From NCBI GenBank assembly GCA_963514005.1, contig OY740785.1, positions 62,744,001 through 62,808,000 of the forward strand: a DNA stretch of 64,000 nucleotides, read 5' to 3'. The notes beneath the pieces are model-generated. The model saw nothing but the letters and a program-made list of their open reading frames with translations. It was not told where the DNA came from and ran no database searches. Origin of the DNA: Raja brachyura. Its lineage: Eukaryota. Shown here piece after piece: positions 14,637 through 21,114 of this stretch. How positions within the stretch are numbered: the stretch's first letter is position 1; each line of letters opens with the position of its first letter. The position numbers were made by a program, and so were the translations under genes.

Positions 14637-15404
14637 TCAAAGCTAATACTTTGTGGACCCGCACTTTAAAGGCAGAAAATAAAGTTTCACCTTTAAGCTA
14701 TGCAGTGAAATATAATGCTTTTTAAAAGATTCTCTAGAACCTATTTTTAAATACTTTGCAACGACACAGTATAATGGTCCCAAAACCGTGTTTTGATGAA
14801 AGGTTATCGACCCGGACATTTTTTCCATCCACAAATGCTGACCTGTGGACTACTTCCAGATATTTCAATTTTTATTACTAAGATATATCATTAGTCTTTA
14901 AAAAGTTTATCTTGCCAAATACAGAAATTGATATTTAATCTAATTGAGGTAATTCAGATTTTCCCCATAATATACCATTTGTCTGTAATATACGTTACTT
15001 CAATTCAGAATTTATTGGCCAATGATCTTCTACATGTCTGTCGAGGAAAAAGTAAATGTACAATTCTAGGAATTAATATTTTACACAAGGTTACCAACTT
15101 ACCATTTTGTTAAATAAAAATAAGGTCAAAATTTGTAATCACCCTTTCATAAAGCATATGTGTTCATCTTACTCTCCATATTAAAGATCAATCTATATGG
15201 AATTTCATTTCGGAGTCACGTGAGTGACTTCTTGAAGAACCCGCCAGCACGCATGCGCGACATATCGTCGCAACGCGTTGCTGCCGACGGCTGGCGGTGG
15301 GGCGCGCTCCCCGCCAGTCCTTCATAAGGGACCGCTAAGGTAAGTTACACTAACCTTAAGTTGGTTGGTCCTTGCTGCGAGTACTTTTGTCTTTCAGCAA
15401 AGGC

Positions 15405-16991
15405 ATGGAAGGGAGTTCCAGAGGCCGTAAGATGTCCGTCCGGAGTCGCCGGCCACCTGTCCTGGAGCCCTCATCATCGGCTGCACCTGCGAGACAGGCC
15501 GGGAAGAAGGCGGGGAAACCGGGGAGCCCTGTTGCTGCAGGGGCCGACCTGCCGATACACCGCAGCTCCGGGGAGGAGTTCGAGAAGCAGGACTGCGGTG
15601 TGCCACCGAAGCAGGCAGACCCTGCCTCCGCATTGAGGTCGCCAACGGGCCCGTTGGCTGACCTGGGCAAGGGCTCGCGTGCGGCCCTTCACCCTGAGCC
15701 CTCGGAGAAGAGGGAGGGATGGAGCCCGGAAGCCTAAACCTTTAGGGGCAAAGGCGTCACCTGCCGCTAAACAGCGGACTGGTGTCATGGCGGGACTCAA
15801 GTCCACTGCGAGGACCAGTGTTGACTCCCCAACCACCGAGGCCGGGACGGGTCACTTGGGAGGAGTCCCGCCACGGCCAAAAGACGGCGTTTGAACACAC
15901 CTCCCGCGCGGGAATCGCTCAGCTTTGCTGCGGCGGCTGGCAGCGACAACTTCTGGCACCGGGTTCACCTCGATGAGGTGCGGGCCGATGAACGGAGCCT
16001 CAGCAGTGTATCAGAGCATGAGGACTCCGACCGCCCGAGTGTTCAGGGCGAGGGGCGTATTGACCGAATGGAGCGGATGTTGGAGCTCCTCTTGCAGAAC
16101 CAACGGCAGGAGGCATCCAGCTTCAAAGGGCACAGGGAGGTTTCGTCAGTCTCAACAGCCAGCCTGAGGCAGCCAGAGGAGGAGGAATTTTTAGACCCTA
16201 CACCGGTTCCATCCGAGGAGCCGCAGGAAGAACTCCTTGATGTGGCGGCGAAATTTGCTTCTCCGGAGACAGCGGGACTTCCCCTCAACCCCAAACTGGC
16301 TGCCACCGTGGACTTCCTAACTAACCACCAGCTCCAGGAGGAAGTTCTATCACAGGCCATCAACAGGCATAAAGCCCCATCCAACTGTAACTCCCTCAAC
16401 GTGCCTGTAGTCAATACGCCAATCTGGGGCAACATAGGCACAGCCATCAGGACTCAGGAGATAAAGCTCCAACGCATCCTGAGGCTGCTTACGGCTGGGA
16501 ATACCGCGTTCGCGCGGTCGGTGGATGGAGAGGACCTCAACCTAGAGCAGGAGGATGCTCTCGCTCTGCTATGTGCTACTCAGCACGAAATACATGCCTT
16601 CCGGAAAAGCAGCATCCGCCCCACGCTCAACCCTAAATTTGCTGGGTTGTGCAAGGCGCCTCCTACACCACCGCCCAGACAGCTGTTCGGGGAAGACCTC
16701 CCAAAGAGGGTTAAGGAGCTGGATGAACACACCAAAACGGTGGGACTAATGCCATCTCAGATCGCCCCCAGGCCGGCGGCCAAGAAAGCACCATTTATTA
16801 GGCCACGAGGCCCTGTCACCAGACCGACACGGACCTACGCTCCAGCTCCACCTCAATACCAGCAGCCCCAGCAGCCGCGGCCTTTTTTAGGGCAAGGCCC
16901 GCAGCGGCCTCCGTGGAAGATGCGGACGCCGCAGCACCAGCCCAACCCAGCACCTCCACGACCCGCCAAACATGTCAGGGACCGCCGGTAA
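15405..16991 (+). pseudogene. DIRS ORF1 (gag-like), frameshifted in its N-terminal part
   Basis: ATG at 15405; pieces 15372..15737, 15679..15894 and 15891..16991; DIRS ORF1-type core PSNCNSLNVPVVNTPIW...LQRI...IRPTLNPKFAGLC...LFGEDL. Confidence 0.8.
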
Positions 16992-19078
16992 CGAGGGAGG
17001 TAAGGCGGTCTGGTTTTCATGCACCTGTGTGCTTAACTTCACATGTTGGTGGGCGCCTTCGGTTCTTCACGGAGGCATGGGAATCTATCACTTCCGATAA
17101 GTTTATTTTACAAAGTATACAAGGCCATGAGATTGCATTTATTAATGGCAACATTCCTCCATCCCAGCATATGCCCAATCGGACATTTACGCTGTCTGCC
17201 ATTGAACAGGCAGCAGGCTATGCTGAGATCTTACGATTACAAGAAAAAGGTGTGATAGAAAGGACTATACACGAACCAATTGAATTTGTATCAAACATAT
17301 TTACCAGGCCCAAGAAGGATGGAGGATGTCGGGTTATTATTGATCTGACCCATTTGAATACCTTTGTAACATATACCCATTTCAAAATGGACACTTTCGA
17401 AACAGCCAAGTCATTGATTTCTCATGGCTGCTTTATGGCATGCATTGATTTAAAAGATGCATACTATTCTGTATCCATTCGGAAACACCATAGGAAGTTC
17501 TTAAAAATTGTCTGGATGGATCAGCTCTGGCAATATAGGGCTTTGCCAAATGGGCTTACTACAGCCCCTAGATTGTTTACTAAATTACTCAAACCTATTA
17601 TGGCCAGGCTACGGAAGCAACATCATATAGTGATGGTCTATTTGGATGATATTTTGATTATTGGCAATACCCTGGAGTCGGCTGAACTGGCGGTTTCAGC
17701 CACTGTGGCACTTTTTCAGGAAATGGGGTTTATTGTCCATCCAGATAAGTCGAAGTTCTGCCCTTCACAGGTTATGGATTATCTGGGGTTCACCGTGGAT
17801 TCCAATCGCATGAGGGCCACCATACCGGCTAACAAGGTTGAGGATGTCACCCAAGTATGTCAGGATTTAGCCTGCGCCAGTATACCATCAATTAGGCAAA
17901 CTGCTAAGGTGATTGGCAAGATCGTAGCATTGTTTCCAGAAGCTCAATACGGGCCTTTGCATTATCAAAATTTGTAAAGAGCCAAGATCTCCGCGTTAAA
18001 ACAGAACGCCGGTCATTTCGACAGATCAATGCAGCTGCCTCTTAAAGCTAAGATTGAGTTACAATGGTGGGTGGACCATATTAGTGACTCATTTAAACCC
18101 ATCATTGTGCCCAATCCGATGGTATACTTGCAAACCGATGCAAGCTCCTATGGCTGGGGAGCTACGGACAACTACTCTAGTTGCGGGGGCAGATGGGACA
18201 CCCTTGAATCTACTATGTTGTTGTCACAAGGGATAAACTATTTGGAGATGCTTGCAGCATTTCACGGACTTCGAGCTTATTGTTCCAATCTTATTGACGC
18301 TCATGTCCGTATCCAAATAGACAATACCACTGCGGTGGCATATTTAAACCATATGGGCGGTACCAGGTCAATTTCATGTGATGAATTGGCTAATACAATT
18401 TGGCTCTGGTGCATTCAACGGAATATTTGGATTTCAGCTACCTATTTACCAGGTGAGCTCAATACTGTGGCGGACACCAGGTCACGCAAGTTTAATGACA
18501 ACATCGAGTGGATGTTGCATCCTCAAATCTTCACTAAAATTACAGCTAAATTTGGTAAACCGGATATCGACCTCTTTGCGTCACGGTTAAACCATCAGGT
18601 ACCAACATACGTTTCGTGGGAACCAGATCCTGGGGCAATGGCGATGGATGCATTCTCGCTGGACTGGGGGAAATGGTTTTTCTATGCATTCCCCCCATTT
18701 TGCCTCATCAGTCGGGTATTGCAGAAAATCCAGATGGATGCTGCTGAGGGCATTCTTATCATACCCGACTGGCCTACGCAGCCATGGTATCCGGTGGTCT
18801 TTGACATGATCAGTCAACCTTGGGTCCTCTTAGAGGGTTGCCCACAATTGGTCACTAACCCTGTGTCAGGGGAACCACATCCCTGCCATAGCTATCTAAA
18901 TTTGTTGGCTTGCAGATTCCGAACCGGCCATTACTGCGGTATGTCCTATCACCCAGAACAATGGATACCATTGGAGCGTCATGCCGGGAGTCCACCAGGC
19001 GGCAATACCTCTCCCACATCCGAAAATGGGAAGCTTACTGCGGCTGCTCTCAAATTACATATGACGCTGCATCCATAG
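16913..19078 (+). pseudogene. DIRS pol: reverse transcriptase - RNase H - DNA adenine methylase-like domain, one in-frame stop
   Basis: VGGRL, IDLKDAY, LPNGL, YLDD (17639-17650); RNase H TDASSYGWG, INYLEM, DNTTAV, ADTRSR; methylase-like DLFAS, AFPPF, WPTQPWYP. ORFs 16913..17977 and 18029..19078 share a frame, split by TAA at 17975. Confidence 0.93.
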
Positions 19079-19899
19079 CCGACGTATTGGAATTCCTCGC
19101 GGGGTTGCACCATGATGAACACTTGAGCTACAGTGCCATCAACAGCGCCAGGAGCGAGCTGTCATTCTACCTCAATATTGAGGTAGGATCCAACAGGCTG
19201 ATGTCCAGGCTCATGCGAGGTATATTCAATTCGAATCCGCCCAGACCACGCTATAATATCACCTGGGATGTCAGGAAAGTACTAACCCTGCTCAGGACGT
19301 GGTCGCCCATGGAGGGGCTAGAGCTGGACAAACTCACCATGGAACTGGTGATGTTACTAGCACTGACTTCAGCGCAGAGGGTACAGACACTGCATAAAAT
19401 CCGGATCGACAGGATGATCTCTACCCCTGCAGAAGTAGTCTTCTTTATCGATGAGCTACTAAAGCAGCATAGACCTGGGTGCACAGGGCTGCAGCTGAAG
19501 TTCCCGGCATACCCCGCCGATGCAAGGCTATGTTTAGCCGCCCATATCCGTCACTATGTCAAAGTGACGAGAAACATAAGGGGAATGGAGAAATACCTGC
19601 TTGTCACTCACAAGAAACCTCACCATCGAGTGTCAGTCCAGACGATATCCAGGTGGCTCAGGATCATCTTGGGTAAGTCGGGTATCGACACTAATGTCTT
19701 CAAATCCCATTCCACCAGGGCTGCATCAATGTCGGCGGCGAGGGTCATGGAGGTGCCCATGGACCATATTCTCGCTACAGCAGGATGGGCGAATGAAGCT
19801 GTCTTTCAGCGATTTTACAACAAGCCTGTTGCTGCTCCTCTACAGTTCGCGGAGGCCGTGCTGAATGCAGGTCAAGAACGTGGAGATGTCCCCGAATGA
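18910..19899 (+). CDS. DIRS tyrosine recombinase, open frame
   Basis: N-terminal core-binding region, then SAQRVQTL (R), HSTR, AGW and FQRFY (catalytic Y); AATAAA at 19922-19927. Confidence 0.92.
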   Translation: MQIPNRPLLRYVLSPRTMDTIGASCRESTRRQYLSHIRKWEAYCGCSQITYDAASIADVLEFLAGLHHDEHLSYSAINSARSELSFYLNIEVGSNRLMSRLMRGIFNSNPPRPRYNITWDVRKVLTLLRTWSPMEGLELDKLTMELVMLLALTSAQRVQTLHKIRIDRMISTPAEVVFFIDELLKQHRPGCTGLQLKFPAYPADARLCLAAHIRHYVKVTRNIRGMEKYLLVTHKKPHHRVSVQTISRWLRIILGKSGIDTNVFKSHSTRAASMSAARVMEVPMDHILATAGWANEAVFQRFYNKPVAAPLQFAEAVLNAGQERGDVPE

Positions 19900-20005
19900 G
19901 GGTTTTTTTGCTTTGTTTATTAATAAATACTATTCTTGTTTTTCAGTACAAGCAGTTTGGAAAATTGTTTACTCCCATCCATCCTTGCTAGTGGTGTGTC
20001 AGCAT

Positions 20006-20099
20006 GTGACTCCGAAATGAAATAGTAAGATTAAACGAGAACTTACCAGTTCGAAGGTTGATCTTTATTTCATGAGGAGTTGTGATGAGGGATTTCGTG
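20006..20099 (+). repeat. DIRS internal complementary region (ICR)
   Basis: 20006-20022 is the reverse complement of 15203-15219; 20020-20099 is the near-perfect reverse complement of 20237-20316. Confidence 0.95.
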
Positions 20100-20781
20100 C
20101 CCTCCGCTCCCAACCCTCGATCATAATCAACTGGTAATTAGAGTCTCTTCAATCTTACTATGCCAAGTCATTTCGGTTTCTGTGATTCCACACCGCTACT
20201 TTGAAGAATGTCGCGCATGCGTGCTGGCGGGTTCTCCACGAAATCCCTCATTGCAACTCCTCATGAAATAAAGATCAACCTTCGAACTGGTAAGTTCTCG
20301 TTTAATCTTACTATTTTATGTGTGAAGATTCCAAGTGAAAGCGGGATGTTATGTAAGATTTGTAAGAATTTGTAAGAATAATTGTTTTTACTTGTCCCAG
20401 AAAATGTTCAATACCAATGGAAGTGATTGTACAAATAATAGAAAACATCTCCCATCACTTTGGAGTTAGGTCATTTAATGTGCCTGAGATTTAAGCACGT
20501 TAATTTGTGCAAGGGTCACATTCAAATTACAAGTTGCTGCAATTATAAAGAATGACAGTCTTGCTTTCTGATAGTCAATTGCTGTGACATGAAGGCAGAG
20601 TCAGTAACTGCAAAAACTGATTCCACGATGTGATAGGCAGCAACATTCCTCAACATTTGTCACTCAATTCCAGCTTGGTCTATTTCTGTATTATCACATT
20701 TTCAGTATATTTCTTGATTTTATTTATTTTGCTCTTGACCCCAATTTTCCAAATATTCTTATGACATATTTGAATAACTTA

Positions 20782-21114
<333 letters not shown>

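Follow-up and report, generated by a model that had tools for sequence, protein, structure and literature searches.

The window analysed here is the whole 64,000-nucleotide stretch of Raja brachyura contig OY740785.1 (assembly GCA_963514005.1, positions 62,744,001 to 62,808,000); coordinates below count from its first letter, and features lie on the + strand unless stated. It contains a decayed, ~5.1-kb copy of a DIRS1-type tyrosine-recombinase retrotransposon, family A (15202..20316, boundaries +/- 4 nt), located antisense to CDC5L in the intron following the exon at 20902..21114 (- strand; E 1.5e-33 to CDC5L chains, splice sites read). The empty site, 15201^20313 with four letters shared, was found in contigs of runs X1 and X2, and ATTT stands at both ends of the element, the NTT type of end without target duplication seen in DIRS1-like elements. 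The left terminus and left inverted repeat (15202..15263) pair with 20208-20250, and the first 21 nt pair with 20003-20023. The inverted terminal repeats (15221-15263 versus 20208-20250) are 91% complementary, with the right repeat and its extension occupying 20208..20316. An internal complementary region (ICR; 20003..20099) pairs with both termini (20003-20023 with 15202-15222, 20017-20099 with 20237-20319). The window copy is dead, its lesions being 8-nt and ~160-nt deletions in gag, a pol stop at 17975 and a 57-nt gap in the ICR at 20005. A homologue search listed at least 120 related proteins, and returned no match among viral contigs and one fragment among metagenome contigs.

Three overlapping frames fill the element. 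The putative gag ORF (15405..16991; ~585 codons from the ATG at 15405 in unbroken copies, interrupted here by the two deletions) gave no Pfam match, and comparison of copies showed that it is under purifying selection. Its look-alikes in the Atlas were unnamed eukaryotic clusters, with LAP2alpha in 21% of the members of one set. The pol frame (16802..18922), -1 to gag, encodes reverse transcriptase (RT), RNase H and a Dam-like methylase in a single ORF (RVT_1 E 9e-22; Dam E 5e-4, below the cut-off; RNase H, without a Pfam row, recognised from motifs and homologues). Besides the premature TAA at 17975, the window copy has lost the usual pol stop (18920-18922), so that its pol frame extends to 19078. 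In place of a DDE integrase there is a tyrosine recombinase (YR), whose frame runs from the site termed A3 below to its stop (18916..19899), is -1 relative to pol, and matches Phage_int_SAM_4 and Phage_integrase (E ~1e-5, both just below curated cut-offs). A predicted poly(A) signal, AATAAA (19922..19927), directly follows the YR stop and precedes the ICR. The same inverted repeats, ICR, NTT ends, ~5 kb length and three overlapping ORFs (gag, RT-RH-MT, YR) characterise the DIRS1-like superfamily (Piednoel et al. 2011, PMC3266345; Xenopus families, PMC9210276), from which family A shows no anatomical difference.

A preliminary description of this DNA proposed that gag, pol and YR are expressed from one promoter by three-way alternative splicing between two donors and three acceptors. 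The sequences and distances of all five candidate sites could be confirmed. D1, AAG|GTAAGT (15340..15345), lies ~+137 from the left end; A1, a pyrimidine tract ending in TTTCAG (15384..15397), is 7 nt 5' of the gag ATG at 15405 and 58 nt from D1; A2, TTTTTTAG at 16890, is 22 nt 5' of a GTG at 16913; D2, GAG|GTAAGG at 17000, is in phase 0, 29 codons past 16913; and A3, TTGCAG at 18915, is in phase 0 of the YR frame. When + strand sites were ranked with a rough weight matrix of approximate frequencies, D1 came first and D2 third of 231 GT, and A1 fifth of 322 AG; A2 and A3 fell outside the top 20 AG sites and thus do not exceed chance by strength alone. Among 38 other family A copies (denominators give the copies covering each site), the dinucleotides were retained at D1 in 34/35, A1 in 31/34, A2 in 34/36, D2 in 37/38 and A3 in 33/33, counts to be read with the fact that these copies, 94-98% identical over the query, are too similar to prove selection.

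Comparison across families bears out D1 as a conserved candidate donor following the left repeat: 10/11 representatives (seven families and lineage I) have it as one of their top three donors, at +127..+138, and it is weaker in the remaining one, L183. It is predicted to be the promoter-proximal donor, and in its strength and its position between the 5' repeat and gag it is similar to the major donor of retroviruses. The distance from D1 to the first acceptor-like AG is ~23-60 nt across families. Searches of the genome for D1^A1 (A and F types) and, with a slack pattern, for D1^A2 gave 0 matches each; this is weak evidence, since such RNAs may not be packaged. DNA searches with the D1 exon and the A3 exon found 30/30 loci unspliced at each place, and none of the best 15 of 62 joints (contigs only, four runs, none RNA on record) fell at a predicted splice site. 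Two X1 contigs (X1 being RNA by guess) span D1-A1 and A2-D2 unspliced and are uninformative on expression. A possible fourth acceptor at 19946, the highest-scoring one of the element, was rejected: it lies 19 nt below AATAAA, is not kept in families E and G, and more plausibly represents the U-rich stretch of a poly(A) site.

The preliminary description overlooked that A2 doubles as a slippery heptamer. T TTT TTA (16883..16889), which overlaps A2 (AG 16889-16890), stands in the gag register as U_UUU_UUA, an X_XXY_YYZ heptamer, and the pol frame, -1 to gag, is open below it. U_UUU_UUA is the HIV shift site according to the available text of PMC5009743. Exactly one in-register XXXYYYN (Z unconstrained) was present in the gag/pol overlap of 7/7 elements counted, four of them relatives in this genome, which gives 7 in 318 overlap codons versus 7 in 2945 other gag codons. 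In-register heptamers were also found in 4/4 intact distant elements at 37-44% identity (U_UUU_UUG in L290 and L291, U_UUA_AAC in L292, U_UUU_UUA in L293); a fifth, L294, is a broken copy that did not fit and was excluded from this count. L290-L293 are contigs of prokaryote MAG records, and we infer that they are animal host DNA. L290 and L292 have a pol frame that opens 0-2 codons above the heptamer, and in L290-L292 the first pol-frame ATG occurs only well inside RT. All 3/3 distant pol proteins with at least 80 residues above the RT anchor carry FFR at the place of the heptamer. Families E and G, which have no heptamer, carry gag and pol as a single frame (~1050 codons). In 8 copies of lineage I two T of the heptamer are lost, which joins gag with the pol frame; pol in this lineage is a pseudogene common to the copies (dN/dS 0.93 for shared substitutions). 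An open -1 frame below the heptamer says little by itself (0.3-0.5 each by synonymous shuffles), the +1 frame being open in 4/5 too, and U_UUU_UUG, found in the older A lineage as well as L290 and L291, is an imperfect shift site. When nine copies were folded downstream of the heptamer, no stimulatory hairpin proved to be conserved (z +0.7 to -3.1); for structures 5-9 nt 3' of it, stable folds occurred in two A copies (z ~-3) and none in B or C. A pyrimidine run with a nearby AG is kept at A2 in most lineages, E included. These sequence patterns suggest that A2 is better read as a predicted -1 frameshift heptamer than as an acceptor, and an acceptor role may exist alongside.

The start codons of pol were compared among copies. 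The expectation that active copies carry ATG in place of the pol-frame GTG at 16913..16915 was not borne out: GTG is present in 35/38 copies and ATG in 3/38, scattered on the tree. An ATG start at this position in family A was rejected, as the ATG frequency is that of ordinary CpG decay (mean 5.9%, 74 CpG sites). Lineages B, H and I have an ATG at the equivalent position, within the Pro-Trp codons CCA TGG. Also overlooked was a conserved pol ATG at 16994, in the context TAA CC ATG GAG|GT: in the window copy the gag stop TAA is followed by CC and AGG GAG (16989..16999), and ATG GAG occurs in 9/38 copies and most sister families. This ATG has been lost repeatedly, to AGG in most of family A, TTG in 14/28 parsed C copies and ACG in 3/4 F copies. 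Pol is nevertheless under purifying selection despite ATG loss in several lineages. Substitutions shared by the non-ATG copies of family A numbered 45 synonymous and 25 non-synonymous (dN/dS 0.15 versus 0.73 for singletons, p 2e-8), those of a starred 8-copy clade 23/8 (0.10 versus 1.03) and those of the C copies with TTG 23/6 (0.07), all counted with codons of misaligned flanks dropped.

The D2-A3 interval (17000..18915, GT...AG, 1916 nt) comprises nearly all of RT-RH-MT, and its conserved ends keep the frame across the join. Six families of this genome, with pol 55-78% identical to that of family A, have both D2 and A3 in phase 0. In A, B, C, E, F and I, D2 is one of the four highest-ranking donors, and it is weak in family G and L291; L290-L293 have a phase-0 GT 8-30 nt past the gag stop. 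In 10/14 distant pol proteins with at least 30 upstream residues, [EQKM]V[SRGC] is found at the place of D2, a motif picked post hoc with a background of 0.0009 per position. A3 is TGCAG in phase 0 in 38/42 loci of six families, and L290-L292 have a phase-0 pyrimidine-AG where the open YR frame begins, this frame extending ~55-90 codons upstream of the homologous YR start. Families A, B, F and G have a Met 15-17 codons below A3; the first YR Met is 104 codons below A3 in C and 87 in E, so that YR needs an upstream start there.

Genomic copies lacking exactly the D2-A3 interval and retaining gag were found at 16 loci. Their tree requires four changes, at least three of them by starred branches, so they have at least three origins. 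When the search pattern let the join vary by up to 15 nt in each direction, 10/10 matches had exactly the D2-A3 join. One copy, L198, has a natural 419-codon frame from above the heptamer across the join to the YR stop, and the YR of pol-less lineage-I copies is under purifying selection (27 synonymous, 20 non-synonymous, 0.24). The gag tail is kept in all pol-less copies examined, and the 3/3 read to the left end retain the D1-A1 stretch and gag. D2-A3 as the proposed route to the recombinase, put forward in the preliminary description, is thus backed by conserved phase-0 sites and exact pol-less copies; its added requirement for a D1-A2 splice runs counter to the gag sequence that these copies keep. 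The joins carry a caveat of microhomology: all pol-less copies come from lineages with GT after A3 and have 4-7 nt at the join (4 nt in stand-in parents for lineage H and an F-like copy, 7 nt in lineage I), and ordinary family A deletions have 3-5 nt in 7/11. If only joins with at least 4 nt of microhomology are counted, two independent matches to the splice join have modest odds of ~1/5 x 1/9. A pattern search found 0 pol-less copies in the abundant family C. The 12 loci fetched for lineage H included no unspliced parent, at least nine being another, degenerate family, and the unspliced lineage-I members have AAG (one GAG) in place of the CAG of A3 in 8/8 read.

On balance we lean towards a model, read from sequence comparison, in which family A makes pol by one -1 frameshift at U_UUU_UUA and YR by the D2-A3 splice. 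Slippage at the heptamer, close to the gag terminus, would move ribosomes into the pol frame, and splicing out the 1.9-kb intron would place the recombinase, instead of RT-RNase H-methylase, behind the shift point. Unspliced RNA would then serve as genome and yield Gag with a little Gag-Pol, and spliced RNA would yield Gag with a little Gag-YR. Copies that still have the ATG two codons 5' of D2 may in addition make free Met-Glu-Pol and Met-Glu-YR, through reinitiation past the gag stop or via A2, but this ATG is dispensable. The sequence registers, the conservation, the selection on pol in the absence of an ATG and the exact pol-less copies are observed directly; we infer the frameshift itself, the fusion proteins and splicing as the cause of the pol-less copies. 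Of the original three-way scheme, the D2-A3 route and the conserved D1 are supported; a D1-A2 splice for pol and expression without frameshifting are not supported.

Three other explanations were weighed against this model. One keeps D1 spliced to A2, with pol or YR starting from the first usable codon below A2 (ATG, or GUG/UUG), D2-A3 adding YR, and no frameshift. No non-coding signal is better conserved than D1, and A1 lies too near to be an easy partner; a U-run with AG is present at A2 in A, B, C, F, H and I, with the acceptor-like CCTTTCTCAAG in E, and the ATG of B, H and I at the 16913-equivalent would suit it. However, young A, C-TTG and F-ACG copies have no AUG at either place and their pol is still constrained, the first AUG below A2 in family A (16920) is in the gag frame, and L290-L292 have no pol AUG before RT. 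The older A lineage has lost the AG of A2, L292 has U_UUA_AAC without AG, and with gag kept by pol-less copies and no D1^A2 copy found, we consider this explanation unlikely. The same observations, together with 0 D1^A1 copies, leave little of a multi-acceptor programme from D1 like that of complex retroviruses. Termination-reinitiation at the gag stop, TAA CC ATG with non-AUG codons tolerated, could instead produce pol, and YR after the D2-A3 splice. A non-AUG codon is tolerated in LINE-1. For SART1, coupled reinitiation has been described, and for LINE-1 it has been suggested, in the available text of PMC5972666, and stop and start are 2 nt apart in the older A lineage, B, C, F, H and I and overlap (TAATG) in L293. 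It leaves unexplained the in-register heptamers and the opening of pol at the heptamer in L290 and L292, and L290-L292 lack any start at the gag stop; as the sole route it appears quite improbable, and it may work alongside the frameshift.

The remaining explanation dispenses with the D2-A3 splice: pol-less copies would be deletions between short direct repeats, by template switching or repair, and YR would be reached through another -1 frameshift or from an internal ATG. The microhomology of 4-7 nt at every observed join, and the lack of any pol-less copy in AG|AT lineages such as C, speak for it; the -1 register of YR to pol and the nearby Met below A3 in A, B, F and G also suit it. Poulter and Butler 2015, as quoted in the available part of PMC13003380, considered frameshifting probable for the YR of Ngaro. 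Against this, the same join recurs in at least three lineages with 0/10 off-register matches, whereas the 11 background deletions of family A all differ from one another. The short pol/YR overlap has no shared slippery run, C and E have no near Met below A3, and D2 and the phase-0 acceptors are conserved to 37-44% identity. We regard it too as improbable, if perhaps slightly less so than the alternatives above.

To our knowledge, retroviruses have no splice below the shift site that swaps the enzyme fused to Gag, as proposed here for family A. HIV-1 and other retroviruses share with it U_UUU_UUA, the register and the gag-to-pol direction of the -1 shift (available text of PMC5009743); unlike them, family A has no protease, and no conserved stimulatory stem-loop was found in it. 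In the Ty1/Copia element EVD, one conserved splice with early termination balances structural against enzymatic products; that splice yields a Gag-only RNA, whereas the family A splice would cut out pol and move the recombinase forward (Oberlin et al. 2017, PMC5580714, as far as its text was available). In Ngaro elements too, YR is in the -1 frame and overlaps the pol end, and frameshifting has been proposed for the order; family A has its shift signal between gag and pol and appears to go from pol to YR by splicing, and Ngaro has split direct repeats (Poulter and Butler 2015, via the available part of PMC13003380). The heptamer, the D2-A3 intron and pol-less copies go unmentioned in the available text of PMC3266345 and PMC9210276, in which 'splic' and 'intron' have 0 matches, and the combination of a frameshift with an enzyme-swapping splice in DIRS1 was not found in the literature searched.

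A broader proposal, which we hold tentatively and at a little short of even chances, is that in animal DIRS1 elements frameshift and intron form a switch that puts either RT or the recombinase on the end of Gag, both entering the particle as Gag fusions. The poly(A) signal above the ICR would stop most spliced RNA from being copied, and its weakening (AATAAA to AACAAA) would give rise to satellites that lack pol, carry the recombinase and move in trans.

DIRS elements occur widely and in high numbers in fish, amphibians and invertebrates, and the available text of overviews (PMC3266345, PMC9210276) is silent on how their overlapping ORFs are translated. The scheme proposed here, if true, would answer how DIRS1 elements express three overlapping genes. 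It would explain families with fused gag-pol, the loss of start codons and the pol-less copies, and predicts Gag-Pol and Gag-YR fusion proteins. Its 7-nt shift site, its donor and its acceptor are precisely located, open to testing and conserved to elements less than 45% identical. The protein annotation of DIRS elements would change as well, because gene callers begin pol and YR at arbitrary internal ATGs.

The element at 15202-20316 is an ordinary DIRS1-like retrotransposon, with inverted termini and an internal complementary region (ICR), one frame that encodes RT plus a Dam-like domain, and a second that encodes a tyrosine recombinase (YR). It is antisense in an intron of CDC5L, an exon of which lies at 20902-21114. 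Contigs of two sequencing runs (X1 and X2) carry the empty insertion site, so the insertion is not common to all related organisms. The window copy is dead; its pol (RT-RH-MT) contains a stop at 17975, and comparison with 38 other full-length copies (drawn from the 40 that were scored among 5893 first-look DNA-search candidates) shows gaps of 8 nt and about 160 nt in its gag and one of 57 nt in its ICR. Pol queries across the 2.7 Gb source genome gave 67,000-74,000 candidates at the first look, as well as stop-free copies by the dozen of two related families, C and E, which points to great abundance and recent activity of DIRS elements there.

The preliminary description had proposed that gag, pol and YR are expressed by alternative splicing between donors D1 (15340) and D2 (17000) and acceptors A1 (15397), A2 (16890) and A3 (18915), with pol starting at a codon (16913) that would plausibly be ATG in active copies. 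This was borne out in part. When the sequence was re-read, the five sites and every distance were exactly as described; the start was not, since just three of 38 copies have ATG at 16913 and the other 35 have GTG, a frequency that matches the CpG decay rate. In a rough matrix D1 ranked first and D2 third of 231 donors, while A1 was fifth of 322 acceptors and A2 and A3 fell outside the top 20. Of the 33-38 copies that cover a given site, 31-37 retain it, but their similarity is too great for this to reveal selection. Nine copies of one clade (support 99/93) read TAA CC ATG GAG/GTAAGG, which places an ATG (16994) two bases below the gag stop and two codons above D2; AGG takes its place in the window and in most of its family, A. 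Two further donor-like sites were observed. CTG/GTAAGT at 20287-20295, which scores second among the element's donors, sits in the right terminus, recurs as its complement in the ICR and is retained in most families read. CAG/GT(G/A)AGC at 18450-18458, within the RNase H/methylase region, is the second- to fourth-ranking donor in A, B, C, F and I; its phase in pol is 1, and it may be either a second donor or a side effect of the Pro-Gly codons.

Genome protein searches and 40 fetched loci defined six groups (A, B, C, E, F and G), the latter five with 55-78% pol identity to A; these were later joined by lineages H and I and by family J, which is degenerate. All seven families have a strong candidate D1 whose distance from the left end is +127 to +138; it ranks within the top three donors in 10/11 representatives and is followed by an acceptor-like AG only about 23-60 nt downstream, short for a vertebrate intron. 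At D2, a stop followed by CC ATG GAG/GT is found in A-old, B, C, F and H, with ATG AAG/GT in I, ATG CAG/GT in E and a weak GAG/GTAC in G. In 38 of 42 loci the A3 site reads TGCAG and is in phase 0. The first YR methionine below A3 comes after 104 codons in C and 87 in E, beyond the SAM-like domain, so YR must obtain its start from upstream. Around +110 to +140 from the left end in family C (L159-L165) a second GTAAGT occurs 22 nt above D1 in a perfect 7-bp hairpin (CGTAAGT/ACTTACG); an extra donor is likewise present in E and G, 16-19 nt upstream of D1. The non-coding family J (L258-L269) carries a unit of only 37 nt after the left repeat, CAG/GTAAGT...CTAAC...TTTTTCTTCCAG/G, in textbook form; it has its 5' gag part in common with H and I, which suggests that families have recombined.

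The earlier interpretation, partly supported, is reversed on one central point, the expression of pol through A2 without frameshifting. Positions 16883-16889 read T TTT TTA, where TTT and TTA are gag codons and pol is the -1 frame. This heptamer is identical to the HIV shift site, U_UUU_UUA, as given in PMC5009743. Each of the seven elements counted has one in-register heptamer in its gag/pol overlap, which makes 7 per 318 overlap codons compared with 7 per 2945 other gag codons. Families E and G, with gag and pol fused, have no heptamer. Their single gag-pol frame (L171-L173, L178-L180) spans about 1050 codons. In lineage I two T of the heptamer are gone, so that gag and the pol frame are joined in 8 copies; all 20 unspliced copies examined have a dead pol.

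Pol remains under selection in lineages without the ATG. Shared pol changes in such family A copies are 45 synonymous and 25 non-synonymous (dN/dS 0.15 vs 0.73); an 8-copy clade gives 0.10 vs 1.03, a 15-copy clade 7/2 changes, and C-TTG, with TTG for ATG in family C, 0.07. Among the loci parsed (23 left out; B and E read separately), we found no lineage with living pol that lacks the ATG as well as a U-run or fusion. A conserved stimulator was not found, and the open -1 frame by itself is slight evidence. Since a pyrimidine run and AG survive near A2 in most lineages, this region may, from its sequence, also act as an acceptor. We regard the predicted -1 frameshift as likely to be real.

The predicted D2-A3 splice draws support from genomic copies without the D2-A3 interval. 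A short motif spanning the predicted join matched three loci, and a two-anchor pattern with 15 nt slack either way, permitting about 1350 distinct joins, matched ten, all with the exact D2-A3 join. Five more from DNA search and one among the fetched loci bring these pol-less copies to 16, two identical over the aligned part. On a gag-tail tree (45 rows) the pol-less state requires four changes, at least three by starred branches. The three copies read to the left end keep both termini, the D1-A1 stretch and gag. In L198 a natural frame of 419 codons extends from a point above the heptamer, across the join, as far as the YR stop. The YR of 12 pol-less copies of lineage I shows purifying selection (27 synonymous and 20 non-synonymous shared changes, dN/dS 0.24). 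Lineage I (L210-L239) is itself non-autonomous, with dead pol and constrained gag and YR, and about a third of its sampled copies lack pol exactly.

Counting against splicing as the origin of these copies are the microhomology at the join, the 3-5 nt of microhomology in 7/11 background deletions, and the lack of any pol-less family C copy in the pattern search. The microhomology is 4 nt in stand-in parents of H and of an F-like copy; in lineage I it is 7 nt, and there the unspliced members no longer have CAG at A3. None of the background deletions recurs and, if lineage I is not counted, the odds are near 1 in 45 that the splice join would be hit twice independently from among the joins with at least 4 nt of microhomology. 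A further hint fits splicing. In 25/27 parsed A copies AATAAA stands downstream of the YR stop and upstream of the ICR, where cleavage would leave an RNA that cannot be copied; AACAAA replaces it in 10/11 parsed pol-less copies (five of the 16 left unparsed) and in 5/5 parsed unspliced I copies, which amounts to one observation, not ten, because H and I share that 3' part. On balance, the D2-A3 splice is probably real.

Five animal-type DIRS loci (L290-L294) were found in contigs of prokaryote MAG records and are likely contaminating animal host DNA. L290-L293 are intact at the gag-pol junction; L294 is broken there and was left out of counts. The heptamer is U_UUU_UUG in L290 and L291, U_UUU_UUA in L293 and U_UUA_AAC in L292, the last listed among the shiftiest sites in PMC5009743. 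L290 has a pol-frame stop immediately upstream of the slippery run, and L290-L292 have no pol ATG before the inside of RT. A phase-0 GT lies 8-30 nt past the gag stop in 4/4 (best donor in L290 and L293, fourth in L292, weak in L291). In L290-L292 a phase-0 pyrimidine-AG occurs at Pro-Phe-Ser codons, where the long open YR frame starts; this putative acceptor would be in another place than A3 with the same logic.

Splicing or a gag-pol shift site in DIRS elements was not found in the accessible text of PMC7192593, PMC5633606, PMC4157794, PMC13003380, 10.1101/2022.06.16.496473, PMC9210276, PMC3950715, PMC12477816, PMC9341512, PMC6681497, PMC3266345, PMC3783388, PMC5972666 or PMC5580714, and DIRS has no match in the first 300,000 of 449,034 characters of PMC5009743. 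PMC13003380 quotes Poulter and Butler (2015) as stating that Ngaro YR is probably produced by frameshifting. Prior mention elsewhere, as in that review itself or in older Goodwin and Poulter papers, is possible.

We propose that transcription would start from the left repeat. Unspliced RNA, also serving as genome, would give Gag and, by a -1 slip, Gag-linker-RT-RH-MT; D2-A3-spliced RNA would give Gag and, by the identical slip, Gag-linker-YR. The ATG at the gag stop, where present, may yield free enzymes. This whole scheme of frameshift and D2-A3 splice is, with moderate confidence, the most likely mode of expression.
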